Shown: positions 36,598 to 64,000 of the stretch, one piece after another
Layout of the letters: each line of letters starts with the position of its first letter
Position numbering within the stretch: the stretch's first letter is position 1
NCBI GenBank assembly: GCA_002633005.1
Contig: NMRA01000069.1
Coordinates: 282,203-346,202 of the forward strand
Reading direction: 5' to 3'
From: Phoronis australis
Lineage: Eukaryota > Animalia > Phoronida
Length of the DNA: 64,000 nt
The notes under the pieces: generated by a model
Told to the model about the DNA's origin: nothing
Databases searched by the model: none
The model's input: the letters and a program-made list of their open reading frames with translations, nothing else
Program-made: the position numbers and the translations under genes

Positions 36598-36672
36598 CGA
36601 CCAGAAACGAGAGCGTGGTAACTATCTGTACTCCAGGGCCGAGTTTTCAGGTGCAATAAACAGTTACAGGAA
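36598..36672 (+). CDS. FKBP8: FKBP8 coding exon 6 (TPR1)
   Basis: ttccag|DQKRERGNYLYSRAEFSGAINSYRK|gtaagt. Confidence 0.92.
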
Positions 36673-37097
36673 GTAAGTGTCACAGGCCTACGTTGGTAGT
36701 TGGAGTGCGCCGCATTTGACCGTTTTGGTTGTCCTGATTTGTAGTAACTTGCCTTATTCACAGATGTCGTAAGGAATCTGAACAGTGCGACTGTGTTGGT
36801 TTCATTTCACTGGCCAACAGAATGCGTAATTGGTCTGTGCCCGACTCATTTCAAAACCTGCACCTCAAAGCTGCCACCAGGTGGCAATGGGTAAAAACAA
36901 AACAAAGAAGATCTCAACATTTGACTTGGTTTAGGCGACTTCATTTTTGAAAATGCGAACTGCATCAATCAGAAAAGAACACCAGAAGCAATAATTTTGC
37001 TATTTGTTGGGTTTAGTCAAGATTGAGTGCATTGTTCAATGCTGTTAAATATTGTTTAATATTGTTCAATATTCATTTACTTTACCCTGGCTTCCAG

Positions 37098-37215
37098 AGC
37101 CTTGACCATTTTAGAGGATGACACCACCAACAGTGAAGCTGATCCCTCCCAGTTGCAGCTCTTGATTGACACGCGTGTCAAGTGTTACGGCAACCTGGCC
37201 GCCTCCCAGCTCAAG
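37098..37215 (+). CDS. FKBP8: FKBP8 coding exon 7 (TPR2)
   Basis: ttccag|ALTILEDDTTNSEADPSQLQLLIDTRVKCYGNLAASQLK|gtgact. Confidence 0.93.
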
Positions 37216-38176
37216 GTGACTGTTGACAATGACACCCTCTGGTGGAGGTAGTCAGAACTAACTAAGGGCCAGAACAACAGTTGTCATCTGTTTTTGTTTG
37301 CTTTTCATGTGCTGATGATTCTGTTCATGACGTCAAACATTGAACTTGTTCTTAGTCTGCCAAGTAAAACAAGGATTTTTTGATTTTGCCCTATTTGTTT
37401 GCTATGCTCTATGGGATGCGTTGTTGCAGGTTTTTGTAATTGATATATTAATGAGGTAATGAATTGTCACAACAAATCTGTTGTCATGCATTGTGTGTTT
37501 TTAGTAAAGTGTGTCGTTACCTCTCTTTGAACAATCTGATTTTTGCATTGTGCTGTGTAGGGACGTGACAAAAAATGCAGCACATTAAAGATGAGTATAT
37601 GGTGAAAATAGCAGAGTGGATTCCCTTTGACATGGTGACATTCTGTGCCAAAACTCATTTGCCAGAAATTCTGTGACATTTTGAGAATTCTGTGACAAAA
37701 TGATAGAAATTTGCTGACTCTAGTCGGCCGTTAACGTTTTGTCAAGTTTACAGAAATTTTATGCGGCATCAAGTGGTGGTTCCTTTTTTTCACAAATTGT
37801 AAAATTTATGGAATTCATCATTATCACTGATATAACGTGTCTTGCATATATGACAAAAGCTAAATTTTTGTGTCACATACATGCAAAAAGTACTAAAAAG
37901 CTATTACAGTTGAAGTTTCCTTGTGACATTTTGAAAATTTTGAGATGTGACAAATTGAGACTTCCCAGTAAATGTAAATCAATGAAATAGCTCTGGGTCA
38001 TGAATTTATGCCATCAGCGCTTAAGTAATATAAGAATGCTTTGACTTGAAAACTTTCAATTTACGCTCAACTCGATCGGATTTGGCTGACAAATTAGTTT
38101 AGACATCTAGTTTGTATTAATTGATACGCAAAAAAGATTAATAGTAAATTAATCTTTTAGAACTGTTTGTCCTCAG

Positions 38177-38266
38177 ATTGAAGCCTACGATGCAGCCATC
38201 AAGTCATGTGACTGCGTGCTCAACATCCACCCACAGAACATCAAAGCCTTGTTCAGGAAAGGGAAG
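38177..38266 (+). CDS. FKBP8: FKBP8 coding exon 8 (TPR2-3)
   Basis: cctcag|IEAYDAAIKSCDCVLNIHPQNIKALFRKGK|gtgagt. Confidence 0.94.
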
Positions 38267-39183
38267 GTGAGTGCTGCTCTTGTTCAATGGTTGTTTTTCA
38301 GTTGTTTTGCACAAAAATAATTGCCTTAGTTGTTTTTTCCAATTTTCAATGGCAGACTTGAATGTTAAATTCATTTAATGACAGCTGTGCAGTGCAAACT
38401 GTGTTAATACCCCTGTTGAATTTTCTTAAAGCGGCACTTCCATCACAAAATTAAATTTGATTTAGATGACTTGCGCAAATGAAATTGGTCTCAAATATTG
38501 TTACTTAGTGAAGTTTAAGATGACTTCGGGCTTGGAAAGGACTGACGGTTTGTTATTGATTGAGAAACAGCTTTAGAAATTAGCTTGTCATGGTGTGTCA
38601 GGGCCTGAGAGAATGAACAAACTTTCGGGTCTCTGCAAGCCGGGAAATCACTTTCCATCTGAGTGAGGAACGAGACAGGTTACACTAATTCTATATTGAG
38701 TCTTTGACAAGTGGTCTAAATCAAATTTAGGTTCTTTGATGCTACCTGTGTTTATAGCCGCTTGAGTGCTCATTTTTGTTGAGACATTTGACAATGTAAA
38801 ATTACATGTTTCCAGCACATCGTGTGCCAGAGGAATTAATGTAACTTAAGCTGTCGTCATTAGAGTTGTAGGATTAATTTTATTTTCGATATCCCTGGGG
38901 TTTGCTTGGAATAATTCAACCAATGGAAATTTTTGTTTCGTCATTCACCTGTAACTGTAATCGGGAAATCCCCTCGTTGATGTACCAATATTTACCTGAT
39001 AAATCTGATTAAAATGTTTCTTTCAGTTTGATTACGTACCTTGTACTTTACTTTTGTGTTTAATTGCGAAAATAAACATCTGTAAGCTTTGCAAAGTATA
39101 CGGTTCTGTGCTAAAGCATCGTGGTCATTTAGATTTGCAGTTTGTGTGTATCTGGTGACAAGGTGAATTTTCATTTTCTCCAG

Positions 39184-39261
39184 TCTCTCGCTGCGAAAGG
39201 CGAAGTGTCTGGTGCCATTACTTTGCTAAGGAAAGCGCTTGGCTTTGAGCCTGAATCAAAG
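39184..39261 (+). CDS. FKBP8: FKBP8 coding exon 9 (TPR3)
   Basis: ctccag|SLAAKGEVSGAITLLRKALGFEPESK|gtacgg. Confidence 0.93.
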
Positions 39262-39632
39262 GTACGGTACATTGGAATTTGATTGTCATTGAAGATTTAG
39301 GGTTCCATATAATGAGGATAAACGTCTTTGTTTTTGTATAAAATGACCCAGAATTCCCCGTCATGGCAGCTGGGCAGAAACTGAATTTATCATCAGAGTT
39401 AACTTCCCTCGTGACTGAGAATGACTGGGAATTAACAGAAAAAGTAGTTAGGTGGCCATAAGTCATTCTGTAGTAAGAATCTTGCTGTGATAATTTGCAG
39501 TTGCCTTTTTTCTCTAGGAAACGTACTCTATACGTGTAACTTTTCACGGATGGCGTGTGTTCAGTGTTAATGGTAATTTCATGAAAGTGTTGAACTGGAA
39601 TGTATTGCAAATTTCTACTGCACTGTTGCCAG

Positions 39633-39767
39633 ATACTACACGTCGAGTTGGCAAAGTTGGTCAACAGGATGAAGAAAGAAGAACAGAAGACTAGAGCCAT
39701 GTACAGGAAGATGTTGGGAACTGACAACATTGATGGACCCATCTATAAACCTAACGATCAGACACGG
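39633..39767 (+). CDS. FKBP8: FKBP8 coding exon 10 (calmodulin-binding helix)
   Basis: tgccag|ILHVELAKLVNRMKKEEQKTRAMYRKMLGTDNIDGPIYKPNDQTR|gtaggt (cf. human IHAELSKLV...LYRKMLG). Confidence 0.92.
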
Positions 39768-39985
39768 GTAGGTTGGGGGAAGGGTGACTATGATGTTGTA
39801 AGATATTTGTATAAACAGGGAGACTGACAACATTGTTGGTGTGTTGTATAAACTCGAGTGTCAGACTTGGGTAGGTTGGGGAAGGGGTACAACGGTGTTG
39901 TAAGACATGTGTATAAACAGTGAGACTGACAACATTGTTGGTCCTGCATGCTCACCCAGTGATCAAATAAGGTATGTCGGGAACA
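39720..39985 (+). repeat. ~103-bp tandem repeat (about 2.5 copies) spanning the exon 10 3' end and splice donor
   Basis: actgacaacattg...gggtaggttgggg(g)aagg...tgttgtaaga.at.tgtataaacag.gaga is repeated. Confidence 0.8.
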
Positions 39986-40265
39986 AGGCAGCTGTGGCTG
40001 ATACGGAGAGAGGGGGCGACGTAAGCTGCTTAAAAATTCGGGGTAATGTGTGAGTAAGGGTTAGCAGTACAATAACTCTTTAGAGAGACTTTGTATGTGA
40101 CAACATTTTGTTGATAATGTTGTACAGAATGTACTGCTGAAAATGGGAGGATTTAGAATGGGCTAGTTCTAGAAATGGACACAAGGGGGGTGAGCGCTAA
40201 GTGTTCGTTGATTGTGCAATTTTTGTCTTTATGAATACGAATGAGTGTAATTATAGTAAGTTGAT

Positions 40266-40340
40266 AAATGAGTATGAACAAATGAGTATGAACAAATGAG
40301 TATGAACAAATGCGTATGAACAAATGAGTATGAACAAATG
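40266..40340. repeat. 14-bp tandem repeat (aaatgagtatgaac)n, about 5 copies
   Basis: Direct reading of the sequence. Confidence 0.9.
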
Positions 40341-42987
40341 CGTTGCATGTCACCATGTTCTCAACACTCAATCGGCCCGTTTTGTAGGTTAAAATACTTT
40401 CTATGTCATTTTTCAAATTGCTTTTATTGATTTTTGCAAATTTGGATATCTAAATTTGCAGAAAAGAAAATACGGTTGTCTGAAACAGGTGGGAGTGGAC
40501 TGCGTTTGGTTAAAATGATTTGTTCTTTGGATACTGCCTCACTTTAGGTCCATGTTCCAAGTTTAATGGAAATAAACTGAGTACTGTTGCCTCCTAGTCT
40601 TTGTGGAGTAGTCCCTTGGTACTAGCATATACTGGTTTATGACTAGTTGCCACTACGTTGAACCTCTGGATCCCAGTTTATTTGTATTGTTGAATGATTC
40701 AATTCTTCATAATCTCGAAAATTCAATACATTCGAAGACTAGTAAACATCTTGTGCGTGGTCATAGTTCTGACAGAGCGGTTTAATACTTGCTGTTCAAG
40801 CAAGAAGGGTATGGTCTGACGATAAAGTTTCAAAAAGTTCCCAAAGTCCTACATTGGGGGGTCACGTTTTTAGGTGGCTACTGGAGGGAGCGCAAATTTT
40901 GTTGGTGAAAGATGCTTTGATTTGGGTAACTGTTTCCAAACCCCAAAGTGTGCCTCTATTCAAAATCGGGTCAATGGCTCACTGGAGCTGTGAATATGTA
41001 TGGTTGTAATTGGTGTGTTCTTGGGTGGGAGGGCACCAAAGTGGATGATTGACAGCTGACACATTAATCCGTATTGCAAATTAGTTTTCAGAGAAATTAA
41101 TTCTAGAAGCAATTGCATCCGATCGTTGTTTAATTCTATCACCCAAACATGGTACATGGTCCTCAAAGTGGTTATGCCTGTTTAAATTTTTTATTTGTTT
41201 TTTTTTTCTTCTGAAATCTGCATTTCCCCTTGTTTGCCTGGCTAAAATAACAAAAATCGTCCTTTTACTCTCATGATGTCAGTCTGAATATTCCTTATCG
41301 TCGTAGGATACCATTTCCATTACCAGTTCAAGTTACAGTCAGTGCTTACTTATTTAGTACATTCGGCATTTTCAAATTCGTAATTTTAGGGTTCACCAAC
41401 CCCAATAAACTCTTGATGGTCTCAATGAGAGTGACAGGGATCATTTGATTTTCGCTTTTAGTCAGCTAAATGAGGCAAATGCACCTTCAGTTGTCTTTAT
41501 ATACGTGCATTTTCTTTATCTATTCACTAGACATAGCGTATTTAATGACATGTCATCATATTGATTTGCATCGTTACGTAATGGACCTTGGTTGTAGACA
41601 CAGCTCTTTATTAGAATTAGATTGCATGGTTTATTGTGTCTTCGCTCATTTAGTTTATGACTGACTACCCCTTGCAACCAGCAAAAAGACACGACTGAAC
41701 TTCAAAATGTGTGGACCGCGAGTACAGTTTTAATTTGAAGCGGTCTGGTCATGGGTTTTACTTGTAGTGGTCAGTCATTTAATCGTGGATTAAATCTGGC
41801 ACTGTGCTCCTTATTCAATGTGGCATTGCCTATTCCTTGTTCGTGTCGAGCCCATCACTCTTGTGTTTTGTAGAAATCAGAATGACATGAGTAGCACCCT
41901 GCTGTGTGTTTTGCTCCATGCATCTCAACAATTTCTGATGAGTAGAAGGAAACCACCATGATAACCCTCTCATGTTGGCACATTCCCCAGTTGGTTTTTC
42001 ACTTGACTGGCAAAATTCCACTCTACAGTTGTTGTAATTTGCACCCACGGCTCTTTCGACTAAACGGATTTCACGTTGCCCGGATAAAATTTCTCTGTCC
42101 GGTTGAATTCGACTTGTACTAGTTTCACTGTATCTGTTTTTCAAACTCAGCTGAAGATTTTTAAATATGGCTTTGAGCCTCATTTAAAAACCTCATGGGA
42201 ATATCTCATTAATGAAAGGATCTAGAGGCCACTGTAGTCTGAGGGTGAACACAGCTTATGGACTGCGGTGCTTATTTCCCAGCAGTGGAAGAATTCCATG
42301 ATGTTAAACTGTCATGAGACACTTGTCGCTTGGAATCCTGATTTGTTGGAATGCAAAAGATTTTGTTTTCTGTCATAGTTCAAGTTTCTGGCTTGACTTT
42401 TACGTCAGTTCTGAGATGTTCATTTTGCACATGTATATCTGTGAAGTTGAAACACTTGATGCGTATGAACTCGTCTCTCATCACCAAGAACAACTTTTGA
42501 TTTAGACTGCTTACTGTTATGAAATTGGCCCCAATCTGTTCCTTAGTAGTCAAATCTTTTGAGGACTTCTGAAAAACTGGCCATTCAGTATTCCGTAAAT
42601 CCAACTTTACAAGTTTTACATTCCATGGCATGTGATTTTATTTGCCCGGCATCGTCTCAACAAATAACGAACTCGCAATTCTCCTCTCTGTTTAGACGAT
42701 TACACAGCTTTATGGTCACTTTAAATGTGGTCTTACGTGATGACTTTCTAAAACCACTTGGAGGTGGTGGCGTGTTACACATAATCGAACTCGTTCTTCT
42801 AAGAACGCAGGAACACCTGACGATGGCCAGAGAATAGACCGACCGAAACGTCGTGACAATGTAAATAGACAGGAGGTTGGTGTGAATAGACCAAGAGATT
42901 GTAATAATAGTCTTACATGATCTTGCCGAGCTGGCAAGCCTCAGTGAATGTCCTGCATTCCCTGATGTCGTCTACTTTTCATTTCAG

Positions 42988-43077
42988 TTCACCAAGTGGG
43001 GCATCTTTCTGGGTGCATCAGTGGCACTTCTTCTGTCTGTCGGCGTGGCAGCATACAAGTATCGTCTGTGGCCGTGA
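42988..43077 (+). CDS. FKBP8: FKBP8 coding exon 11 (tail-anchor transmembrane segment)
   Basis: tttcag|FTKWGIFLGASVALLLSVGVAAYKYRLWP*; hydrophobic helix flanked by basic residues; phase 0 matches exon 10; AATAAA downstream near 44700. Confidence 0.88.
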   Translation, partial: FTKWGIFLGASVALLLSVGVAAYKYRLWP

Positions 43078-47196: not shown

Positions 47197-49569
47197 CTAA
47201 CACGAAACATACTTTGGAAACGTAGGGGACAAAGTCCGAACACATCAAACACAGTTGAATCAGTAAAAACAGAGCTCTCAAACTAAGCTGAACAGAAGTA
47301 TGCTAAAACAACACATTACAAGCCAAAATTAATCAGCAATGAAATGGACCGCATTGTTGTCAAACTTAAGTACGAGATAAATTTGACGTTGCTATTTCTG
47401 TGCCTGAAGCAGGTGGATCACTAAATAGGCAGCCATAAAGTATCAGAGACTTTGATGAAATTAAGTCAGTACTAAAAGCCCATTTTTGTACAAAACTGAC
47501 ATTTGGCCATGTTTCCATGTGTTCAAACTTTGTCCAAGTTTGACGTCCAGTTGATTTTGAAAACTGCTATTATATTATATTAAACACCATGTAATGAAAT
47601 TTCAACCATTACCACACATCACTCCCAATACTGAGCCCTCTTGCACAATGCTCCAGTCTTTATGTATTAATATAGATACGCGTAACATGTAACGTATTCA
47701 GTGCAAACCACACCTCCCTGAGGGCCCAGAAAGAAACACATAATACAGTATATACACCACCAAAGAAATCTAAATCATTCACACAATCTAAACAAAAGAG
47801 AACTTTGGATAAATAACAGTCCTGAAAAAGAATCCAGTGCAATAAATCCTCTAAAGTTATAGCAATACTTTTTCTTTAACTGTACCTTAGGTATATAAGC
47901 TGTACTTTTTATTGACAGGCACTTAAACCTAAATATTCATTACATTTACATTGCGTCCTCAGAGTCCGGATTCCCATACCAAATGACGTCGTACAGAGGT
48001 CGCAACCTATTTTTTAACTTGCAAGATCCATACGACGGGCCTAAGCACATCGCATGGTTATCGCCTATGGGACACTACCATTGTTTTGCTTTGTTGCGTC
48101 TGATATTACAATACAGGTCGCACGGATATCCTACCACGGGTGCACATCAGCCGGTTACCAACAAAAGCTTGCCATTAACTTGACAATACGAAAGAAACAC
48201 AAAGTAAACAATGGCAACGCCTCTCTACCGATATCTATGTGACGAGCTTGCGACCCAGTTTCCCATGGGATACTAAAAACTTTGTTAAAGTACAGTACCT
48301 TATAAACTACCAGACTGATACTTCTTTAACTGTTGTGCCTTCCAGTTTATAAGTGATATGTCAACACGGTCAACACTCAGATGATACACCGGGTTATTCA
48401 ATGCTTAGTTATGAGCACAAGCATTTGAATCTAGTTGTTTATTACATTTACATGGTCAGAATTGAGTGCCTGTGTCCCCACTGTCCAACTTACTATTCAC
48501 ATAACACAACTTTGTTAAGAATGGTCCCACAAATTCCTCTCAATGTATTCTCCGCACGGTGTTTTACCAGTTCAACACAGATGTGAAGTAATACCTGTGG
48601 TTTGACCATGGTCAGTAATACCCTTTCATTCTCATGAAGTGCATTTAAGAAAGATCAACCAAGACGTTCGGTAAAAAGTGATGGGGCTACTACAGAAATT
48701 GTACTGCCACCCACAGCGCCCTCATTCAGCCATGAGCAACAACAATTAGGATACACTCTCTATTACTTCAACCATCTGAGTAGATATGGTTCTTTTTTGC
48801 ATGCCCCAGCTCAATACCACATAAGTCTGAGAATGGATACCCTGTAGAAAATAGCCATTCTTTCAAGAACACCGTTTCTGCCCGCCAGTACAACTGAATA
48901 CATCCCAATCATTTGGCACCCACCTCCTAATTAGCAAGGCATGCTGGGAAGGGCAGAGTGACTTGAAAACTGCTAATAACAACACAACTGCTCTACATGT
49001 TCTGTACTGTTCAACTCTCCCCAGCTCAAAAGTCTTGTAAATCAAGCTCAGGCTCAATTCATTGCTAATTGAACCATATTCCTTGGTATTTCATCAACTG
49101 AGAGAACTGTCTTCCCCAATCAGTTCCATATTAAGCACATTGTATTTTCTCTCAACAATTCTTTAAAAAATTCTATGATTGCTGACGGCTGGCTGCACAT
49201 CCTAGTGTTGCTTCGATATCCGAATTATTCGCACACATAATTCCTCATTCCTAATGTGACATATTGTGCTTTTCGCATGCTTTTATCATTTTACTCCTGT
49301 CCGTAACAACAAACAAATCTACATTCAAAGATCCGAAATTAATACGTTGAAGTCGACTGTTGTTTAAGTCTATAAACGACCAGCTGCTTAATGGGCAAGT
49401 CCACATTCCGTGGCTCCATTTGGTAAGCTGAAGCGCAGTGACTGTACTTAATACATCAGATTGTTACCAAAACATGTTCTCCCTCTATGGAAATAATTAA
49501 AATAGCTGGGACATTATCCATCAACAGCTCATGGGCAATACCAAGTCTCTCATTAACACATTAAGCGCA

Positions 49570-49764
49570 TTAACTTGTAACATGTGCTTGAACGCCCTCT
49601 GCAGGCTGTTGCTTCCTCACATACTGCACTGTAGAGTCTTCGTCCAGCTGCGAATCAGGTCTTGTCACATAACTTCTGTTAGAGTCGCCAACCATCAGGC
49701 TTATGTTCCCAGAATTGTAAATGTGAATCTGCTGAGGCTGGTTAGACACGCAGATATTGCTGCT
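49570..49764 (-). CDS. TICAM/TRIF-like adaptor, last coding exon containing a RHIM-like motif
   Basis: ttctacag|SSNICVSNQPQQIHIYNSGNISLMVGDSNRSYVTRPDSQLDEDSTVQYVRKQQPAEGVQAHVTS*; phase 0 matches the previous exon; TAA at 49572-49570; not listed in the ORF track. Confidence 0.78.
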   Translation of the reverse strand, partial: SSNICVSNQPQQIHIYNSGNISLMVGDSNRSYVTRPDSQLDEDSTVQYVRKQQPAEGVQAHVTS

Positions 49765-50060
49765 CTGTAGAAATAATATGCAACAATATATAATTATTTA
49801 CCATGCAACAAGGTGGGGAAGAGAAATGTTTTGTTAAGCCTTCATTCTTGGCACAGTTTCTACTTGACAGCTGACGTGAAGAACACTTATTTGGTAAAAA
49901 ATTCAGTCCTTATAGCCAAAACACTCATTTCGTATGAAAATAACGAAGGCATTTAACATTAAGTACAATAGCTGTTTAAAGAACATCTTCCCATTTTATT
50001 TATTTATGTATATCAATTTGTGGTACTGAGGATGTTATTGACAGAAATAGAATAAACAAC

Positions 50061-50170
50061 CTTTTCAGGGTCCATCGATTCAGTGACTGGGAAGGAAGTT
50101 TTTAGCCCAGTTTGCTCGACTGGCTGTTGAACATTTTGGGCTCTTGGTCTCCCACTTCCTTCATCACCAC
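50061..50170 (-). CDS. TICAM/TRIF-like adaptor, coding exon 5 (low-complexity linker)
   Basis: tttctag|GDEGSGRPRAQNVQQPVEQTGLKTSFPVTESMDPEK|gttgtt; phase 1 to 0. Confidence 0.7.
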
Positions 50171-50829
50171 CTAGAAATACAGATTGTGCAAACAAAAACA
50201 AAATGTGAAATGAGATGTCATGGACTGTCTGCTGTTCAGTCAAGCAGTGAAATTACCATTAAAAAAAATAAAAGTATTGCAGATGGTCAGGTACACTTTG
50301 TACCAGATGTGTGCAGGCCGCTCTAGGGGGCCCAATGCACTGACCACCTGGAACTATTTTTATGCTTACCATCACCAGAGATCCGAACTTGGAATGATCC
50401 ATTACAAAGAGAAGAAAATTTTCCTGGTAGCGCGTACTTCTACAAAATAGGCTTATGTGATAGAAATATTTTTGTGTTGCAAAATTTAACTGCAAGAAAT
50501 ATTTTTGCATGAATAAAGGCAAAATAATTATAAAAAGATGAAAAAGAGGAAACTGGAAATCAACTAAGAGGAAACTGAAACCAAAAAACAAGAAATTCTC
50601 TTAAAAAAGGAAAATTCCAAGCCCTGAGAGATGGTAACAGATGGGACATCACATGAATAATAAAATAAGTACCATCTAAGAAGCAAACTATTGACTTAGG
50701 TCACTAGGTATGGATAATACAATTGGTAAAAAATTGCTCCTCACTCAGATGAAAAGTGGGTTTGCAAACAACTGACTGTTCATCATACCTTGAGAACACG
50801 CTCGGCATACAAAGTGACACGCTGTGATA

Positions 50830-51020
50830 ATTGACCTATCGCAAGCTCNNNNNNNNNNNNNNNNNNNNNNNNNCTTGCGAGGTCGACAAACAATAAGTTT
50901 TATCCGGCAATGCGTTGTTGGTCAGGTAAAATGGCGGCATGGATATGAAAGTGCGTCAAGAATGTTGCGTTCTGATTGGTCAATTAAGCGGTCACTCGTG
51001 ATCCTGGCGATAGGTCAATT
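50830..51020. mobile_element. ~190-bp MITE containing the N gap; inverted copy at ~62810-62995
   Basis: TIRs attgacctatcgc / gcgataggtcaat; shared internal gtcaagaatg.tgcgttctgattggtca. Confidence 0.7.
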
Positions 51021-52014
51021 AGTCAAAAAGAAGAGCCTGATCACAGGAAATAACGAAATGCCAGTTCCTTGAAAACTCTGAAATCACCACTATTAAGTTG
51101 ATTAAAGAACAATTTGAAACTAATTTCATAACTGTAATTGTTTTAAATCAAAAGGTGTTTTGGTGATGGAATTCTGAGCTCAATTCCATAAAAGTTATAA
51201 TCCGTACACCAACAATGATGTCGCATCATCACGCGTCACGTTGTTTTTGTTGAACAATGAACCCGAGGTCATGCAACAATCACACTTTATCCAGCGGATA
51301 ACTTTGAAGTTTTATGCAACCCAGCCCTGGTTTGCAGCCACCTTAAAGTTACATAGGACCTAATCATCAAGTCTGTATGTTTCTAAAAATTTGATTTTTG
51401 AGTATATACCAATCTTCCACTAGATGAGTTGTGTGACCTTGATTTTACGAAAATATACCAAAAAGAAAAGTACATTACACAACAAAACGACATTATCGCT
51501 AACATGCCTGATGAAATTTCGTATGAATGTTCAAGATTAAGTCTCAAAAAAGCTCTAGTTTTCTAAATTATTGTTTCGTTTTCGTTTTAGTTTTATGCAA
51601 CTTTGAAATTTTTTCATAAAAATCACGTAAGTCCTATTTTTGATAGCCCCTCGTGCAAAAGTGGAACATTTTAAAAACAGTTCCTAACAGCGTATTGAAG
51701 AACAATCATGTATAAAGCGTAGTATCTGTAGCTCTCATGTCAACACGACCAGCGATTTCTGAGATAGGATGTTCCAAAGTTGGCCAAAATTGGACATTTC
51801 CCCCATCCTCCATAACCACAGTAAGGAGCAAGAAATGAAATATTTTCTAACTTTTTATGTAGGCTGGACCATAACACCTTTAAATTTGCACCACAACTTT
51901 ATAATATTGGAATGGAATCCAGCCATCAAGCACAACACGCAGGTACAGTAGGTAAACAAGATCAACAACGCACCCACATAGATCTAAAACCCAATATCAA
52001 GGGGGAATAAAAAT

Positions 52015-52510
52015 TGGTCAGACATCAAAACCATTTGCCTGGACTTCAAACCCAGTCAGCTGGACTGCAGAACCAAAGGGCCGGTGGTCAAACAGGTTGT
52101 CCAGACTTCAAAACGCAATGACCTCACCCACAAATAACTAGTTGGCTGGACCCAAAACACGATGGCCAGTGCTATAACCAGGTGGCCGGCGATCAAACAT
52201 GATGGCCAGACTTTCTAACAGACACGCTTTGAACGTTTCGAAGGATTCACGTGACATCTAGTGTATATTTTTTGCACCTGTTTGTTTCTTTTAATAAAAA
52301 TCAGCGATTTGTTCCACCATTGTGTTTGAGCACAGGCCAATCCCTTCTAGGTCTGGCCAATCAGATTTTTGGGTGCAGCCATCTGGTTTTGAGGTACCAG
52401 CCAACCTGTTTTGAGGTCCGAACACCAAGTTAGTACACAGGCCATTAGGTTTTGAAATCCACCCAGCTGGTTTTGAAGTCTGGGCAAGTAGTTTTGAAGT
52501 CCAACCAATT
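52015..52510. repeat. Foldback-like element with inverted arrays of ~22-bp subrepeats
   Basis: Left units (t/c)ggacttcaaa.c, right units ggttttga(a/g)gtcc. Confidence 0.6.
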
Positions 52511-53973
52511 GCTGATTCCGGCCCATGAAGAGTCCAGGTGTAATACGTTCACTGTTTCACCACAAGATAGTATATATCGTGCCACATACCTCTCGGCGAT
52601 GTGGAGTCCTTTTGTGACGTCTTTGTCCTTTGGCCACTATCTAAATTCAAAATCAATCTATTTTAAGCAAAATTAAAACAGTCACATGTCTTGTATCTTT
52701 AGACATAGTCTGAACTAAATTTTTTGAATATGTGCGACATTTTTTCCGACCCAAGCATCAACTTCTTTAACGGAGCATTTCATTCTGTTCATCTGACTAA
52801 TAAAGGAAAATCACAATATGCTCTATCAAGATAGCATTCTATTAATAAGAATATCAAGACCAAGCCCAAAATTGCAAATTCGAAAATGACAAACATACAC
52901 ATTGCCTGTGACTAAATCTGGTAAAAGAAACAGAACCCTATCAAGGTAAGGAACATTATGATACCAATGTTATATCAGTATAATACCTAACTTCGATTTT
53001 CATTTTAGCCAGCAAAATGCAGCTTTAATTCATGCAGTATACAACAGGAAGCTCGTTTCTTCAATGAAAGGGTAATAATAACAATAGTAATAACTGAAAT
53101 GAACAATAATGTTACAAATAATGTGTGGTCGACTTAGTTTGTGCGATTTTCAATCCATCAGACATTGATGCCAAACTTTACGATTCAAAAATTGTGGAAA
53201 ACACTCACTAGAAATTTGCTCCCAAAGTTGCAATGTCAAGGGCTTCATCTATTGTGTGAACATACCCAGAGAAAAGTTTTGAGTGTTTCTTCCAGAAATG
53301 TTTAACTATAATAATTTTTCGCTTCACATACTTCACAGGGACAAATGGTGATGTGCGCCACCATTCAGGAATTCTTAAGTCCATGCAATACATCTAAGTT
53401 ATGACTTTAGCTTAACGTCCAATCACTGATTTTTGAAGTTCCCAGTTTGAATGCTTTGGGCCACGGCAGTCTAATCTTTTTATACCAGATCGAACACAAA
53501 TTATTGTTGTCATTTTCTATGTTCGTGCAAACTCAAGAGAAGAGTCAATTATTTTATGCCTGAGTACATAACGGCTGAAATGCATAACTTTCTAGTCCTA
53601 GTTTGCACTAAATGACCCCATCATTGAGGCTAAAAATTCAAGTCTGAACTCGAAATTTCAAATTATTACCAAGCCTGGGTGTTGTCATATCTTGAATTTG
53701 GCCATTTGTGTGTCTTGCTATGTACACACTAAAATTATTTAAAGATACCCTTCGCGCTAGTCTTTCTTTTCTGAACAAAAACGAATCCCTGAACCGAAAA
53801 ACCAAAGCTGAATATTCTTAATCGTTTCAGCACAACCGCGAACATGCCTTAAGTCTGTAATGACCATGTGCTCAGACATATTGTGAAGCTGTTATATGTT
53901 AGAATCAACATGCCATAATCCCCCAGACTATCGCAGGAGGGTGGTGTGTAGCAAACAAGGTATCGCCACATAC

Positions 53974-54102
53974 CCGGGTGATCACTACCATCGGCTGCTC
54001 CTCGTGGGTCCATATCAGCAAGAGGTGGACCAGTGTGGCCATGCGTGTCTGCTGCGTCTTCTTCAAGGTCCGCACTGGCACCCAGCATCGACTGCCTACT
54101 TG
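53974..54102 (-). CDS. TICAM/TRIF-like adaptor, coding exon 4
   Basis: ttattacag|ASRQSMLGASADLEEDAADTHGHTGPPLADMDPRGAADGSDHPG|gtatgt; 129 nt, phase 1 to 1; GC-rich relative to flanks. Confidence 0.75.
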
Positions 54103-55320
54103 CTGTAATAAAAAATACAAACTTGTAAAGACTGACTGTTGGCTTGGGTGCTAAGTGTTGCATCAAGAGTGAGATTCAAAACCAGTGAACATGTTGTCAC
54201 TGTGAACAGACACCATAATGAGTCTTGCAGTTTTTAGTGCAAGCCCATTGCACTGAGGCTGCTACACACTGGTGTACAAAGGGGGGTACTATGGGGGGCC
54301 ACGTCCCTCCTGCTCAGTCAAACAAACCCTCCCATTGTAACTCATGGACACCCTATTCATTGCAAGTGCCCCCTAGATGTCACCCATGTCACCTTCTCCC
54401 CCACTTCCCTGGTGGGCAACAACTTCATGCTTGGTCCCACACTTGCAGCTATGCCAGCACTACTAGATGCGTCTTACAGAAGTATTGGGTCTTTGTTAGT
54501 AACTAGACATTTGAAAACTACAGCTTCTATAAAAGCGGTATCTTTATAAGTGAATGCACAAAAGCTTCTGATCATAACATAGAACTGTAGCCCAGTAATG
54601 CCAACTCACACACGTGACCAATGTATTCTATTATTAGTGCTTGCAAACCCAAGATCAGCCGTGAAAGTTTTCACTGAGTATTTCCAGCAGCCTGTTTGAC
54701 TATGTTTTGATCGGGAGTTGTAGATATCAAATCAAGTCTAATTTCATTGCTTCATTTTCATTTTGTTATCATTGTTCATCAAGCAAGACTCTTGAGGTAT
54801 GGTTCTGTACAATAGCAATTTCTCGCCATCCCAAAGGGCTGTCTAATGATATTACCCTTATGGAATTCAGCTGAAAAACGGCGGAGTTGCGAAACGTTTT
54901 AATGACCACAAAGTCCATAGCAAATACACACACCGGAACAAACGAATGCGAACAACTGTCATGCATGTGCGGCGCAACCTCAGTGGCCACGAGATTGGAG
55001 TTGGCATTCCAGGTCCAGAGTTCTATGCCTCATAACAAAGGCTTCTTCCCCTCACTAGATTCAGGCATTGAGTTTTGAAATAGGGAGCACTGAATCCACT
55101 AGGGGGTGTCAGGGAGACTACACTCTTACCCGACGCAGGTACTCATATGGGTCTAATTGTCAACAGATTTCAGCTCTTCATCCATCCATACAACAGAAAG
55201 AAACCAATTCTTCACTAACGCCACCTAGTGAATCCCGAGCTTACTGTTGCCAGGACCACCGAAAGTAAGCCTTAGGTTGCACAATCTTACAATTAAATCA
55301 CAAAATTTTCAAATGTTAAC

Positions 55321-55402
55321 CTTTTTCTTCGAATTTGAACGAGTGCGTTGCTTCTTCATTGGGATGCGGAGTTACGCCAACAGCCTGCACCGGTGCGTGA
55401 TC
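55321..55402 (-). CDS. TICAM/TRIF-like adaptor, coding exon 3
   Basis: tttttatttaaag|DHAPVQAVGVTPHPNEEATHSFKFEEK|gttaac; 82 nt, phase 0 to 1 bridging its neighbours. Confidence 0.65.
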
Positions 55403-58400
55403 CTTTAAATAAAAACACAGTCATTGTCAAATCACTGGTGAAATCCAGAACCATTACATTAATTAACTTCAGAGCTAACCTTTCTTCTTCTGACTACAGG
55501 CAAACTGAAACAGAACAAGGATAGTTAATGAAATACATACATGTTATGTTCAAAAATTGTACTTATTTACCTGCCCCAGTTGCGTACTTTTAGTATGCCT
55601 TTGAGTAAATGATGTTGCTAAAAAGTATCTCAGGAATTTCTCTATGTCGAGCATCAAAATGTTACACTTCGTATAATATATTTGTGAACGCTGAATGGCA
55701 CTTTTCAGTAACAATTGATGCCACAGACAGAGCCACAATTCACAAACTTGAAATTCTTTGACAAAGACAAGACAGTACGAACACTGACTGGAAATAATGC
55801 TTGTGTGAAGATGTTTGCTTGAAACTTACAGACATGGCCATACAGCCTTGTGGAAGGGGAGAATTCAGTGTTTTCCACAGTAAAAATGGCAAACTCGAGG
55901 GAAAATGTCATTTGACTGTACATCAGATGGGATGTCCAAGATACAGTAAAGTAAACATTTTCATAAATTTGGACAAGGGGCAATTCATGTTTTCAAGTAT
56001 GTACACCAAGATTGGCGTTTCAAAAGACTTGTTTTTCAGTGACACTTGCAAACAGGACAGTTGTCTTATTTTAGCCACTAGGTGTCACCATAAGATAATT
56101 TAACTCAAAAATTCTAGATATTATGTAAAAGCTATACAGCTGTCTCAAAAAGTTTTGTTAATGAAAGAATTTTCAGACCATGGAGAACATTGAATGAAAG
56201 TGATGCGGCCTTTTTGTTTAGCTGGTCCAGGGCTCGACATAACGAGCTGCAGGATGCATTTGAGACCCGAAATTTGAAATGCGAGCTGAGATTTTGGCCA
56301 ACTCACAGTAGTCAGACTTAGGCAAGACGAATTTTCATGCCAAAGGCCAATTACATCTAAGTGCACTGATGTGAAACTTTTAATAACCCTAGAACCAATG
56401 ACATAATTGGCGTACCAATTGTCAGCTAAAGGCGACCACTGAATTAAATGGACAATTGTCTTCTACTCAGGAAACTTGAATAGCTCACTTGCGAGTTTCT
56501 CGCTAGTCACTCTGACGTCACCGGAAAGGGGGCAAAACCCGCCATATTGCTCTTGTTTTGCCCCGAGTCTTTGCTACACACGAAAAAACTTACTGGAGTT
56601 CTTATGGTGAATTTAACGCTTAAAACGTTAAAACAACTTAAGATATGGTAGATGGGTCGTGGAATAACTGTGATTAGACGAAGAAAATGTGACCTTGTCA
56701 TGTAGTGCGAAGCTGTGAACGGACTGAAATTGGAACTTAACCCGCTCTAGGCCTGAATGGCGCAGGCATACAGGGGCGATAGTGTATCCCCATAAAAAGA
56801 TATTCACTTCAAAATACAGCAAATGAAATCAAATGAAACATGCATGTGTGCACATGAAGTTATAATTAACACATACCCTGACTCTGGACACAATTTAGTC
56901 TACAAATAACTTTAGCATATTCATGAAAACCTCGCGGTTCTCTCGAGTTTCTCTCACTACAGAGCCGCCATTTTGAAGAAGTTACGTGAAATCACGCCTG
57001 TTGACGAACAAAAAGTCCAAGGGACACAAATCTTACAAATTTCACTTGATATTTTCTCATGCTATTTTGCAAGTGTCACGCGCCAGGTCACGCGCCAGAT
57101 CTCGCGCTTCGCTCAGTCTCGCGCTAGCCTTTGCCTCGCCTTACTCAGTTGAACTACTTGATTGTGGTAATCGCGCGCGCGGACAAAGTTAACAGTAACC
57201 ACAAAGTGGAGTTGGAATTCTTCGCCTAAGTCACCTGAATTCCCGTATATATGCTTCATCGAAGATATACTTAGAAGCAGAAAGAGTCACTGAAGAAAGT
57301 AAGAGCCTTTTAGGTGCTAATTTTAGGTGTAGAATGTATTTTCGACGAGGTGAAAACTTTACCAGTGAGCGGATTTCGCCTACCGCCCGTTTAAAATACA
57401 CGGGACGTAATTAGTACAGAACGCGATAGAACGTATTGTAGTGCGAATCTGAAGTTCATTTGCCATAACAGCAATGCTTTTGGACATTTTTCGAACTAAA
57501 CGGCTAAAAACTCAAAGACAATAACAGAATACACTCTGCTACCGTATTGGGCAAATGACCAAACGACAAGCTTTTGCCCCACTTCCCGTGACGTCAAAGT
57601 TAAGTCTCACATAATCTCGCGTTATTGTTATAAACTCGCAAAAGGCCTATTTCCATCTGCCTAATGTCTGTCAAGAAAATTGCGAGCTGGGGATTTTAGC
57701 CAGGTAGCTAACAACGACCTAGTGATTTGCATATCATCAATGACTGTGTTTGTAATATTTTTAACAGGTTGCAAGCCATTCAAATGTGTCACAAGGGCAG
57801 GCTAACAGGTGCAACCGACACATTATAACAGGTTTAGGAAGACACTGCAGATGCCCCCTTTCTTCAGAATCATGAAAACTTCCAGCAAATAAAAAATTAA
57901 AAATCCATCATTCGGTCCCTAACTGAAAAATATGCTTACGTTCATAGGTATAGCACCAAGTACGAAAATTTTGCTTTCACTTAAGATTATGTCAATCAAC
58001 AAGTTTTCTGACACACAATTTGCCTTAACTTCCCAACCGTAACACTAATGAATGAACAATACCAACCGTCATGTAACGGTCCAATAACGGTCTTGGCCAT
58101 GAACCCCCTTTCCCCACACAACAAAATTAATAACGAAGGGTATGCAAGCTTTTGATGTTACCCTCAGTAAAACGACACAGATAAGTGCCAATGTTGGAGA
58201 GATATTTATCTGAGTTCCAAAGAAATAATTATAAGATGATCAGCGACATATTAAACTTTTTAAAAATTTTGTTGTTACTTAAATGCCAACTGAGCATCAA
58301 AACTGCAAATGTCTGACACGTTTTGTCAGTAGCAAATTAGTTTCATTGGTCACCAATTCCTCAGAGATTTATCTCATAGTTCCGTGCTTTCAAAAGCTTA

Positions 58401-58666
58401 AGGAAATTATGGTAACATAGACAGATTCAAAACACCTTGAATGACTCCGAGACTATTTCGAGAGGAAAATTTTCGAAAATTTTGCAAATATAACAGGTGC
58501 AAGGCCCTACAAGGAAATCGAAAACTTCCGAGTGTATTTTAAGACTTTTTGGAAACGCCCTCGACAGCGTTACATGCAAATTGCTCACCCAAAGTTTTCT
58601 TGCACAGAAACACAAAAACACAGCGTTAGGCTAACAAGCACATAAGAAGCAGAACATCTTAATTAC

Positions 58667-59373
58667 CTTTCCATTAAAACCTTGATCAAGTAACAGTAAC
58701 TTTAGCAGCATCCTCTCTTTTTTCATTTCCTCTTCCTGTCTCTTCTTCCTCTCCTCCTTTTTTCTTTGCACCGGATGACTCGGATCAGGTCGGTACGTTT
58801 TGTAGTTATCTGGTGACGTAAGTCCAAACACAGTGCAGAGGTGTTTCTTGTAATAGTAGCCCTTCTCCTCTAGGCCGGCGATCGGTGCAATGTGGAAGGG
58901 TATCTCCTGTAAATCTTTCTTCACCGTCGGGTAGTACGGGATGAAGAGATTTTTATACTGCGTGTCCATCAAACACTTGTACAGTGCAGCATAATTTGCT
59001 TGTTTGAACATCTCGCCCCCGTAACGATTGAATAACCTCATGGTCTGACACAGCTTCTGTGACATGTAGAGCAGATAGACAGTGCTGTGCTTAAAGGCAT
59101 ATTCATACGTCTCCAGATCATGTTTGAAAGCAGGACATATACTCACATCATCATACATACACCCAACCAGTCCATAAGTTCCCAGCTTCTCATGCAACCT
59201 TTCTGCACCTACTCTATCCTCCTCAATGAAAATCAGAGTGTAATCATATTCTGTTGGACTATGTGCCTCGATCACTCCATTTGGTGGCTGGGAATACACA
59301 GCTACAATGGAACAGTCAGAACGTGATTGACAATCATGGTTCCAGCAAGGCTTTAGCATATAAGAAATGCTGC
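58667..59373 (-). CDS. TICAM/TRIF-like adaptor, exon 2: TIR domain plus charged helix
   Basis: tttttag acceptor; YDYTLIFIEEDRVGAERLHEKL...AFKHSTVYLLYMSQK...YAALYKCLMDTQYKNLFIP...EIPFHIAPIAGLEE aligns by eye to the TICAM2/TICAM1 TIR (FVILHAEDD...YTSLMNSVNRQHKYNSVIP...TPFALQTINALEE); donor AAG|gtaatt. Confidence 0.85.
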
Positions 59374-60577
59374 CTAAAAATGCAACTGCAGAACAAAAGT
59401 GAAGTACATGAAAAATGAAATAACTCGAGCAAACGGTGCGAGGCCCTCGACCTAAATGTGTAACTGCGATAAATATTCACTTGTTTGGAATAATCTCTAA
59501 AATTTGGAACACTGACATTCAAGTCGAAATTGCACTTATTGATGCTGACGATGAGGAAATGGGCAAATTTTTCATTCATCATGTTCCTTAAATTTGGGAG
59601 ACTGCATTTTGCATCAACTGAATTTGAAAACTCTAACCAACACTCAGCAACTTCTAAAATCTTCCAATAAGGCCGCTGACACGTTGGCACGTGTTCCCAT
59701 AGAATGTAATGTCGAGGTAAATATTTTCCAACCATGCCGGGATCTTCTCAAAATTCGGATAGTGCATATGGCTTCAAACGTTATAGTTTTAAGATCACAA
59801 TATTATTTGCGAAAATAGAATTCACATTTACGTCGCTTAGTTTTGTAAATTTGCAACTGGTGGCAAAAGCGTAGTTAGTGTGTTGTTCTAAGACAAAAAT
59901 CACCCTAATTTTGGTTTAAAACCGAAAACCGACTTCGGGGTTATGAAACGAAACAATCTTGTCTGAATTTTTGTCTGTCTTAACAGAGCCGGAATTTCGG
60001 TCTTAACAAATATCATGAAAAGGGCCCCTGGGCTTGAACTCAAATCAGCCATTAGGACAGGCACTCATCCCCATTCTTGTTAAAGCCATGTTCAGCTTAA
60101 TGCCCAAACCAATTTTGAGATCTCAAAGTGAAGGCCTGGGGCATTAACATTGATGAATACCGTTAGGTGGTTTTAACCAAAAAGAAAAATTGCACATTCT
60201 CACAACTCATATGACTATCACGTGGGAACAAAACAAGATTTTGGGATTGTCAGAAAAAAATTATTAAAATTCCCAAAAGGGGGAGTTCGGAACAAAAAGC
60301 GTAGTTGGTTCTAGTCCGCGGCCCACACAAATGTAGGCTAGTGACCTTATGACGCGGGCATAACCACCTGATCAATGTTCATCAACGACCCATTACGTTG
60401 CACACATTAATACTGCCAGCACTCACCCTACAAGCAAAACAAAGCATTGAAATGTGCTCACGACTGCATCGTAAACTGTATGCTTCTAGGAGTGTTGATC
60501 AGTATCACAAAAAAAAGGCTCTGTCGATTCCCTAACAGGAATCAATTTGCCAAATTTCATCAAATTTCCCTCAGGAA

Positions 60578-62066
60578 CTTTAAAGATGTGGGGGAAATGA
60601 AAATACAATTTCCAGTACAAGGTACAACAGTAGTGGGATACATCTGACTGAAGTTGGTCATTGTTCTTACCTTCATAGGAATACACTTGGCAAAATTTCA
60701 CAAAGTTCCCGATGGACGTTTAGGAGATATAGCGGGTGGAAAAAAATGGCATTAGGGGGGACCACAGTATTCAGGGCCGTTCGAAAATCAACGTCAGTCG
60801 CGTTGTCAAAAGCAAAACAAAAATATCTGACTGGCAATTTTCTTGATCTTCTGAGAATTTAGGCAGAGGTTAACGCCAAGAATAGAGACACAAAAATATT
60901 ACACAAATGGCCACTAGGTGGCACACTCTATGTCAAATCTAACCGAAATTAAAAAGGGGATGTATTCTAAATAGAAACCTATCATGCAATCCTGTCACAG
61001 AACAATGAAGAAACAGAGGTTAACAAAAAATAATAAATTGCCACTAGGGGGCATACCAGAACTTAGTCAGATGCATCCAAACCAACCCTGCCTTTTGACA
61101 TCACAGTTTTCCATGATTACACAGCGTATGGGNACTCACACTACTGTCACTGTGATACGGGTCACCGACTCCAGCCATTTTCAGCTTACAACACTCTAAA
61201 CAATCCCTAAATCCAACGTAGTTGAGTTCTCTACTAACCTATCTTGCCGCAGAATACTCGCCGATAGAAAGTGGTGGCGACAATTGTTGAAAAACAGCAC
61301 AAAACAAAAGTAGAATAGAACAGATTTGCACGGTAAAGTCAACGCAAAACCAAGTGGCAGGAAACGCTTGCCTCCTAAAACGTCACTTCCGGAGTAGCAG
61401 ACGAGTGTTTAATAAAATTACGAAAAGCTGTAATTAAATGGAAAATATGTCTAGGATAACCAACCAACCTTATTTTAGCTCAAACTGGCATGCAAAAAGG
61501 TTGCCTTCGCCTTTAAAGATGTGGGGGAAATGAAAATACAATTTCCACTACAAGGTACAACTGTAGTGGGATACATCTGACTGAAGTTGGTCATTGTTCT
61601 TACCTTCATAGGAATACACTTGGCAAAATTTCACAAAGTTCCCGATGGAGGTTTAGGAGATATAGCGGGTGGAAAAAAATGGCATTAGTGGGGACCACAG
61701 TATTCAGGGCCGTTCGAAAATCAATGTCAGTCGCGTTGTCAAAGGCAAAACAAAAACATCTGACTGGCAATTTTCTTGATCTTCTGAGAATTTAGGCAGA
61801 AGTTAACGCCAAGAATACAGACACAAAAATATTACACAAATGGCCACTACGTGGCACACTCTATGTCAAATCTCAACCGAAATTAAAAAGAGGGTGTATT
61901 CTAAATAGAAACCTATCATGCAATTCTGTCACAGAACAATGAAGATACAAAGGTTAACAAAAAATAATAAATTGCCACTAGGGGGCATACCAGAACTTAG
62001 TCAGATGCATCCAAACCAACCCTGCCTTTTGACGTCACAGTTTTCCATGATTACACAGCGTATGGG
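60578..62066. repeat. ~555-bp direct duplication (60578-61132 and 61511-62066) of HINE-type subrepeat sequence, single-N join at 61133
   Basis: Near-identical text in both copies, containing gccactaggtggcac and gccactagggggca. Confidence 0.85.
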
Positions 62067-62241
62067 ATGGTGGCAACATGGGACATTTTGCAGAGTTGAA
62101 CTATGTTAACATTTTCTTCCATCTCAGTGTACTAGTATATTAACTCCTAGGCTGTATTTTGGCATGGTAAACAACCTCAATCTGTCTGGTTTTATATTTT
62201 GAGCAACGTTTTGACCCTAAATCCCTAGTCTAATTGCTCAC

Positions 62242-62293
62242 TTTCTCTTCTGGCGTCAACTTCTAAATCCTCATCAGGCAAACAGGCAGACAT
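62242..62293 (-). CDS. TICAM/TRIF-like adaptor, probable first coding exon
   Basis: aacATG MSACLPDEDLEVDARRE A|gtgagc; phase 1 joins in frame to exon 2 (S-SISY-MLKP...). Confidence 0.55.
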
Positions 62294-64000
62294 GTTTCTT
62301 TACGTTTTCAGATGCTCAGCCAAAACACATCTCGTCTAAAGCCTCACTATTTCATTTCCTCTCCACCAACGTGTAAACAATCCAACGCAAACCTTTTTCC
62401 GGTGCACTTTCAACACCCTAAAAACAAAAACAATACATAAACATGTGTACTCATATTTACTAACCAAATAATTTCCTTTACAAACACAAGTTCAATGACG
62501 TTTGAGTGTGCTTTGGGAGGATATTTCTCACACGGCCATTTTGTGTGGCTTCTTGCTCTTGGTTCCAAATCAATCATCAGACGAGAAAATCTCATTCATC
62601 TTCATAGAGATAGGCACCAAAATGTAAATCCGTGGATGACGTCCGTAATGCTGAGAAAGGACGCTTTACAGCTGTAGTTGTGGTCAAATTTACAAGAATT
62701 CTTTAAAAAAAAACATTAAAATTTAGACCATGAACTTTTCAAATGTCTTATTTCAAAGTGATTTTGCAATGAACAAGTTACTCATCCCTGTTCAAGTAGC
62801 TAATTGACAGACCTATTGCCAGGATTTTGAGTGACAGCTTAACTGACCAATCAGAACGCAGCATTCTTGACACTCCTTTGTTTCCAAGACGCCATGTTCC
62901 CCGACAAACAACAAGTTGTCCGGTAAAACTTTCTGTTTGTTTGTCGGGTACCACGTGACTTTTCGCAAGGAGGTGGAGCTTGCAATAGGTCAATTTGAGC
63001 GCATGTGTGAAGACCCCGTGGTCTGTTTCATGAAAAGCGATTATAACTTAGAACAGAAATTTGGTCTTACGTTCCCAATTCAAAATTGTAAAATGAAGGT
63101 TTCGTAACGTAGTTATTAATACACCACTGCCTGGAAATAATTTGTACATTTTTTCAGTAATTAAAAATGATGGGTCTATTCTCTGATAGTTAATTCTTTG
63201 GCTCAAGTGAGTTTGGATTATTTCTCAGAAATATTGATGTAGAGCACAAGACCAAACTTCTGTCTTTAAGTTTTAAGTCACTTTTCATAAAACAAATCCC
63301 TGATTTGACGTTTTCAAAATCGGACAATATGCTTTAGTAAACATATAATGTCTGCATTCTTCTCCATTTTGAAAATGAGGAATACATTTCAATAGTCCAA
63401 AGTAATAACAAGAACAATTATATCTTTAGTAGAATTTGACAACAGTGTAGAGCTGCCATCTTTTTAGTCAATACCGAATCTCTGCATAAACAATGTAGCT
63501 GATTGAGGGGGTCCAAGTTATGGCCCACTTGATACACTACACAATGCACGAATGCAATGTGTGCTGTAATTTTGCCAGTGCCATATCTGATGGTTGGTGG
63601 GGTGTTTTTTTTAAGTGGTCACTAATTTTTTAAACAGGTCTGTCCATAAAAGAATCGGCAAATGTCTGGACTAAAATAAAATCAAGCCTACATGTTGAAA
63701 ATAAATCGGACCCAGTTGCATGGCCAACAAAATATTATGTATATTGTGTGCACAAACTATCTCAGTACATTCAGTTAAGCCACTGAAACTCCTCGGTGCC
63801 TTCATTCCGGTTTGATTTCAATCTGGTGAATTGCCGTATTGAAATCAACCTTACAAAAACACTCGGCCCCTGAAATTTCATATTAAACCCTCTCCTATGG
63901 TGGGCACTGGGCACGATATGTTTTTTCTCTTAAAATGTCAGTCTTTGCCTTAATAATATCATGACTCAAATCCCCATTTGGTTTGATTACAGTAACCAGA

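Follow-up and report, generated by a model that had tools for sequence, protein, structure and literature searches.

A stretch of 64,000 nucleotides from contig NMRA01000069.1 of Phoronis australis, referred to as the window throughout, carries a six-exon gene on its minus strand that likely encodes a soluble adaptor of the TICAM (TRIF/TRAM) family in a non-chordate animal. The protein is predicted to relay signals from TLRs to NF-kB in the absence of MyD88, and we put the probability of this reading at roughly 0.55, a joint figure over steps that we infer throughout. Its 400 residues are arranged as a short N-terminus of 34 residues, a TIR-like domain (residues ~35-176), a charged helix (~196-222), a low-complexity linker and a RHIM-like motif (348-364). 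Most of this layout was proposed in a preliminary description made from the DNA letters, which reported a TICAM-type TIR domain followed by a RHIM-like motif. A TIR-type domain is indeed recovered by comparison and a protein of the brachiopod Lingula anatina has the same layout, although Pfam sees neither domain and the RHIM tetrad is non-canonical. Since this nearest relative belongs to a brachiopod and its parts follow in like order, the suggestion of a branch outside chordates is supported.

The six exons originally drawn have GT-AG ends, agree in phase and, when joined, give a single open reading frame (ORF) of 424 residues whose sole stop is terminal; an in-frame TAA lies 9 nucleotides upstream of the ATG in exon 1. 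RNA evidence covering positions 48000-64000 was taken from four public runs of one organism, namely a contig set (X1) and three stranded raw-read RNA runs (X2-X4). In the TIR exon the RNA differs from the window by ~3-4% (9/302 and 9/233 letters in two contigs), so the runs represent different individuals or a very closely related species. Read orientation in X2-X4 was uniform in the bins over exon 2, the last exon and the 3' untranslated region, which fits a minus-strand mRNA. Our statements on splice joints rest on the 15 listed out of 63. Three junctions were recovered exactly, each in the contig set as well as in X2-X4: 49764/50061 (12, 21 and 12 reads), 54102/55321 (1, 2 and 10 reads) and 55402/58667 (5, 4 and 8 reads). 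The donor of exon 1 at 62242 joins an acceptor at 59301 (8, 8 and 8 reads in X2-X4, and a contig), not the one at 59373 used in the preliminary description; no joint at 59373 was found among the 15 of 63 listed, and rare use of it is possible. The observed bin depth (3.48/1.72/3.92) compares with an expected 3.41/2.34/3.30 for an acceptor at 59301 and 6.2/4.25/5.99 for one at 59373, so that the former fits and the latter does not. The shift stays in frame and drops 24 residues, so the exons, phases and single ORF of the first drawing stand while its 424-residue product becomes one of 400. The gene is thus real, spliced and expressed, with four of its five junctions shown by RNA-seq. We infer the remaining junction, 53974/50170 between exons 4 and 5, because the phases agree, an X1 contig extends 113 letters beyond exon 5, a scan for extra exons in this intron returned one weak 48-nucleotide candidate only, and the Lingula ORF holds both parts of the protein. 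An assembly gap of 25 N lies within the same intron (50849-50873). Rfam and tRNA scans gave no match. The features of the gene, in the order of the transcript, are as follows.

62242..62293, minus strand: coding exon 1 (ATG, residues 1-17), its donor at 62242 seen in 8+8+8 reads and a contig.
59302..59373, minus strand: 72 nucleotides included in the preliminary description, intronic in the main transcript according to bin depth and the lack of a listed joint.
58667..59301, minus strand: exon 2 with the corrected acceptor (residues 18-229, TIR-like domain and charged helix), from junctions 62242/59301 and 58667/55402 and the translation.
58826..59251, minus strand: TIR-like domain, residues ~35-176, from the Lingula match, PDB profile, model, Foldseek, structural search and ESM Atlas.
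59132-59134, minus strand: BB-loop Pro74, aligned with P434 of TRIF in the profile alignment.
58688..58768, minus strand: charged helix after the TIR, residues ~196-222, also in the Lingula protein; predicted helical in both models at a predicted local distance difference test (pLDDT) score of 70-90.
55321..55402, minus strand: exon 3 (linker), both junctions observed.
53974..54102, minus strand: exon 4 (linker), acceptor junction observed and donor deduced.
50061..50170, minus strand: exon 5 (linker), donor junction observed and acceptor deduced.
49570..49764, minus strand: coding part of the last exon (residues 337-400 and the stop), junction 50061/49764 in 45 reads and a contig.
49681..49731, minus strand: RHIM-like motif, residues 348-364, with the tetrad LMVG at 359-362 followed by xxN, from pattern and shuffle analysis; matched in neither Pfam nor PDB.
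48215..49569, minus strand: 3' untranslated region of at least ~1.3 kb, with one-orientation coverage of ~9-26x and AATAAA at 48443 and 47913.

An unfiltered phmmer search of 1,835,955,588 representative sequences returned one match at E<=0.001, the Lingula anatina protein XP_013408459.1 (E 9.7e-9, 35% identity), of which a second copy, XP_013385928.1, is 97% identical. The pair corresponds to LOC106172349 and LOC106155575, which are alleles or recent paralogues, and neither has a domain annotation. XP_013408459.1 shares the order of parts, with TIR-like domain, charged helix and RHIM-like motif in one ORF. Judged by its sequence, this protein is by itself enough to place the putative family outside chordates, and the placement is independent of the window's host because the Lingula protein is itself non-chordate. 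A word-indexed homologue search aimed at longer proteins confirmed 0 of 485 candidates, and none of 240 pattern matches in metagenome contigs was confirmed. The profile homologue search confirmed one of 3034 candidates, again the Lingula protein, and relatives of less than ~30% identity would escape it at such database sizes.

TICAM ranked first, each time weakly, in three comparisons of the TIR-like domain. A profile of three sequences (the window protein and the two Lingula copies) was searched against 177,635 PDB sequences and gave seven matches at E<=10, of which the top three are human TICAM1 (E 0.0024, 0.043 and 0.11). The alignment of these covers the entire TIR, starting at the first strand, and runs on into the charged helix. 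There was no TIR other than that of TICAM1 among the seven matches, though PDB holds TIRs of MyD88, TIRAP, SARM1, IL-1R, plants and bacteria; a repeat with the first row trimmed gave six matches. In the profile alignment, Lingula and TRIF have the pattern E-x-x-C-x-x-x-A-I-x-x-S of alpha-B in common. A Foldseek search with the AlphaFold model had TRAM, TICAM1 and again TRAM as its three best matches (E 0.018-0.039, with no match at E<=0.001) and TICAMs in five of the top seven rows. In the ESM Atlas, the TICAM2 cluster came first for the Lingula TIR (0.90, 173 shared features) and TIRAP fourth (0.89, 157), and for the window and Lingula TIRs the best ten matches with a family all belong to the TIR clan. 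The wide structural search is less specific. Its top row is a prokaryotic SEFIR (Z 5.2, root-mean-square deviation 4.2, 106 aligned residues) tied with others, its top six rows are TIR/SEFIR chains, and the model alternates strands and helices at low confidence; on this modelled structure, the search confirms a TIR/flavodoxin-like fold only. A fold from the single sequence was unusable (pLDDT 41).

Two details of the alignment bear on function. In the alpha-C column aligned to a Gln of TRIF, which we take to be the column of the catalytic Glu in TIR NADases, Lingula has His and the window protein Gln or Ala (the register is ambiguous by one residue), with no Glu. The BB-loop motif E-D-F-x-x-P-G has been described as a mark of TICAMs (PMC7075850); the window protein has an acidic pair and the Pro, the latter in the P434 column, and does not keep the Phe and Gly. 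Taken together, TICAM is supported by three methods as the nearest characterised family, and on sequence grounds membership of the TICAM family is quite probable, with orthology as a further possibility. The earlier assignment of a TICAM-type TIR is supported, weakly in each case, by the PDB profile, Foldseek and the Atlas but not by the structural search.

The motif in the tail was compared with published RHIM definitions, namely the canonical tetrad (V/I)-Q-(V/I/L/C)-G (PMC9444067) and the extended pattern [IV]Q[ILV]GxxNx[MLI] (PMC9440496). The window protein has LMVG-x-x-N and the Lingula protein IHVG-x-x-N, and a beta-strand-like I-x-I-x-N precedes the tetrad in both. Shuffling of the tails yields a relaxed tetrad with Asn by chance in 2.1% and 3.7% of cases. 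The full two-part motif pattern was found in 4 and 14 of 50,000 shuffles of the window and Lingula tails, and an uncharged 20-mer equally rich in I/V/F/Y and N/Q/S/G in 18 and 50 of 5,000, both patterns having been written post hoc. In passages of PMC12119088, the tested variants of the RHIM tetrad tolerate some change and all retain the Gln. RHIM was reported as undetected in lancelet sequences (PMC9440496), and the motif is therefore easily missed. From its sequence, identification of the motif as a RHIM is suggestive only, and we consider it somewhat more probable than otherwise that it would function as one.

No transmembrane segment is present in the 400 residues (highest 19-residue hydropathy 0.81), and Pfam scans of exon 2, the last exon and the Lingula protein showed no death, SAM, LRR or transmembrane domain, the only matches being weak ones to DUF6937 and EAD10. 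The N-terminal domain of TRIF is absent, the N-terminus being 34 residues long, and a pLxIS motif occurs in neither the window nor the Lingula protein. Myristoylation at an N-terminal Gly2 is a feature of TRAM; both proteins begin with Met-Ser, thus lacking Gly2, and both have long tails. Two matches to the TRAF6-type pattern PxExx(acidic/aromatic), at residues 6 and 33, were rejected as chance, being absent from Lingula and, in one case, overlapping the first TIR strand.

Given these features, a mechanism of the following kind may be envisaged. The non-enzymatic N-terminal TIR would be nucleated by the TIR of an activated receptor and would polymerise head to tail via the BB-loop proline, as in TRIF and TRAM. 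We favour receptor-nucleated polymerisation because the BB-loop Pro is kept, the alpha-C column has no Glu, and the TRIF N-terminal domain, pLxIS and a myristoylation site are lacking. The TIRs of TRIF and TRAM form two-stranded filaments through the BB loop, with P434 in the filament interface and the NADase Glu missing (PMC11745336). Polymerisation might then cluster the C-terminal RHIM-like motifs, carried on the helix and disordered linker, and the clustered motifs could form a joint amyloid with a RIPK1-like kinase through its RHIM. Both Lingula and zebra mussel are reported to have a RIPK1 with a RHIM, and in the zebra mussel protein mutation of that RHIM attenuates or abolishes NF-kB activation (PMC12119088). 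The predicted output is NF-kB activation and not interferon, as for amphioxus TICAM, whose RHIM-mediated binding of RIP activates NF-kB independently of MyD88 and which induces no interferon (PMC6043800).

The literature searched (titles, abstracts and text passages) held no description of a non-chordate TICAM, and the six Lingula accessions are not mentioned in the full-text literature searched; Gerdol 2017, reportedly on TIR proteins across Metazoa, Gerdol 2018, said to treat the Lingula immune system, and Tassia 2017 might mention the family. Since the architecture is already known from amphioxus TICAM, what is new is where the family occurs, and priority even for this is not certain. In the passages concerned, TICAM/TRIF is described as chordate-only (PMC6043800, PMC9334734, PMC4892480, PMC6321704) and TRIF-like TIRs as restricted to jawed vertebrates (PMC7075850). 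Most of the TRIF pathway was found in oyster, where an unknown adaptor was proposed (PMC4892480). In spiralian RIPK1 the RHIM contributes to NF-kB activation, and the relevant passages name no upstream partner (PMC12119088). PGRPs with RHIM motifs were reported as not found in molluscs or brachiopods, and RHIM surveys as negative in two nemerteans (PMC9835746); RHIM families occur in several invertebrates according to passages of PMC4262963, in which TIR goes unmentioned. If the assignment is true, the occurrence in both a brachiopod and the window species of a protein that joins a TICAM-like TIR to a RHIM-like motif would date the branch back to the bilaterian ancestor, and the TRIF/TRAM signalling branch is likely much older than assumed. 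We would give about even odds to the broader proposal that a TICAM-RHIM-RIPK1 axis, i.e., a MyD88-independent TLR branch, already existed in the protostome-deuterostome ancestor and survives in lophotrochozoans as a fast-evolving adaptor invisible to Pfam, which would be the missing upstream partner of the RHIM-bearing RIPK1 of spiralians. The Lingula gene pair of adaptor and RIPK1 is now named and open to one shared reporter assay.

A number of results weigh against the TICAM adaptor reading. Regarding the gene, the exon 4-5 junction, which links the TIR exon to the tail, is not among the 15 of 63 joints listed. Regarding the TIR, Pfam TIR, TIR_2 and TIR_3 matched neither exon 2 (E<=1) nor the Lingula protein (E<=10); we take this miss to reflect divergence, and surveys with hidden Markov models would therefore overlook the family. 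A phmmer search of exon 2 against PDB gave one unrelated match and no TIR, TRAM is missing from the PDB profile matches, and for Lingula alone alpha-actinin (E 0.0057) outranks TICAM1 (E 0.53). The AlphaFold model, built from a shallow alignment, is poor (pLDDT 48), and in the structural search TICAMs (Z 3.7-4.4) do not stand apart from SEFIR, plant, bacterial and IL-1R TIRs or from flavodoxins. The Atlas matches of the window TIR are unnamed and bacterial TIR/SEFIR clusters at <=0.88, and the three TICAM rankings are not fully independent, having a common sequence signal and the common Lingula bridge. Regarding the RHIM, both tetrads lack the canonical Gln and the strict pattern has no match in the three proteins; Pfam RHIM is unmatched in the last exon and the Lingula protein; and the RHIM region found nothing in PDB alone and two unrelated matches as a two-sequence profile. 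The motif lies near the C-terminus in the window protein (348 of 400) and mid-protein in Lingula (271-288 of 385), with two more residues between its two parts in the former, and a local alignment of the two tails selects the motif segment at a score that is not significant (1215/5000 shuffles). Finally, no relative was found in further invertebrates, amphioxus included, in searches blind below ~30% identity.

Some of these results would be expected if a TICAM-family TIR were joined to a degenerate or non-functional RHIM and the protein used only its TIR, serving as a TRAM-like bridge or a dominant-negative regulator. The non-canonical tetrad, the missing Pfam and PDB matches and the non-significant tail alignment point that way, as do the first places of TRAM in Foldseek and of TICAM2 in the Atlas (Lingula TIR), and the RHIM of human TRIF is reported to be dispensable for NF-kB in a reporter assay (PMC12119088). 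Nevertheless, the motif pattern is retained in two otherwise unalignable tails, a Gly2 for TRAM-like myristoylation is absent, and Lingula has a RIPK1 with a RHIM (PMC12119088), and we regard this alternative as unlikely. On the other hand, the resemblance to TICAM could be a long-branch effect in a lineage-specific orphan TIR adaptor (ecTIR-DC-like or TIRAP-like) that gained an amyloid motif independently and works like TRIF without being its orthologue. Against this speak the first rank of TICAM in three rankings, an alignment to TRIF that spans the whole domain including the alpha-B pattern and continues into the next helix, and a domain order equal to that of amphioxus TICAM. We judge it rather unlikely, even though every TICAM score is weak, the Atlas separates TIRAP from TICAM2 by 0.01 only, the structural search is non-discriminating, amphioxus TICAM is absent from the phmmer and profile homologue matches, and orphan TIR proteins are many in invertebrates (PMC9334734, PMC6321704). 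It is very improbable that the domain is an enzyme (a SARM1-like or bacterial-like NADase) or of SEFIR type, for which the tied top row of the structural search and the bacterial TIR/SEFIR clusters of the window TIR might be cited: SAM and ARM domains are absent and, if the alpha-C column is the catalytic one, His in Lingula and Gln/Ala in the window stand where Glu would be required. TRIF and TRAM likewise lack the catalytic Glu (PMC11745336). Judged from the sequence, a chordate host, such as an unsequenced cephalochordate with an ordinary amphioxus-type TICAM, is very improbable too: the best 120 of 505 SNRNP35 matches include no Branchiostoma name, the phmmer search returned Lingula and no amphioxus protein, and the Lingula match makes a lophotrochozoan host likely.

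Other parts of the window hold genes and repeats. The last exon of an alpha/beta-hydrolase (Pfam Hydrolase_4, E 6.4e-6), presumably ABHD17, lies at 4562-4804 on the plus strand, and a single-ORF SNRNP35 (U11/U12 35K; 240 residues, RRM) at 14159-14878 on the minus strand. The latter has no close relative (51-70% identity among the best 120 of 505 matches, with no Branchiostoma name among them), and in a quick tree of 121 rows, which includes no named cephalochordate, ambulacrarian, annelid or lophophorate row, it falls on a long branch outside a 91-row vertebrate clade (Shimodaira-Hasegawa-like approximate likelihood ratio test 99). Scattered plus-strand exons at ~31212-43077, convergent with the TICAM-like gene, look FKBP8-like by eye (FKBP, TPR and a C-terminal membrane anchor), a name also used in the preliminary description. 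Human ABHD17A, FKBP8 and TICAM1 all map to 19p13, and TICAM2 maps to the paralogous 5q22. Provided that the neighbours are rightly named, linkage over 4562-62293 would be weak macrosynteny support for TICAM orthology. Intronic or upstream repeats at 50136-52271, 56010-58145, 60816-61883 and 62418-63485, which carry reads of both orientations and numerous loose ends, are dispersed non-coding repeats found in many transcripts. Near-identical ORF-like stretches in opposite orientation at 16255-16653 (plus strand) and 16872-17177 (minus strand) are probably the arms of an inverted repeat or an element like a miniature inverted-repeat transposable element.

Compared with known systems, the window protein shares with the two Lingula copies a 35% identical TIR, the charged helix and the RHIM-like motif, whereas the Lingula protein has a shorter linker, carries the motif ahead of a long acidic tail with IHVG as tetrad, and lacks an alpha-C insertion of ~8 residues. 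Human TICAM2/TRAM (PDB 9dlg, 9dki) is the top Foldseek row and the top Atlas cluster for the Lingula TIR and has a similarly short N-terminus; in contrast to the window protein, it has the Gly2 myristoylation site, is unmatched by the sequence profile, and is without the long C-terminal tail and RHIM-like motif. Human TICAM1/TRIF (PDB 2m1x, 8rlm, 9dk8) is the best profile match over the TIR and the next helix and has in common the BB-loop proline, a RHIM-type motif in the C-terminal part and no catalytic Glu at the aligned position. However, the window protein lacks the TRIF N-terminal domain, pLxIS and the Gln of the tetrad, and it is 400 residues long against about 712, from a multi-exon coding region. 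Amphioxus TICAM (bbtTICAM) likewise combines TIR and RHIM in a soluble adaptor, with NF-kB output via RIP (PMC6043800), an output that we predict here as well; the window and brachiopod proteins differ from it in being non-chordate, in their non-canonical tetrad, and in being too divergent for it to surface in homologue searches. Because it has neither the TRIF N-terminal domain nor the pLxIS motif, the window protein resembles amphioxus TICAM more than TRIF in its make-up.

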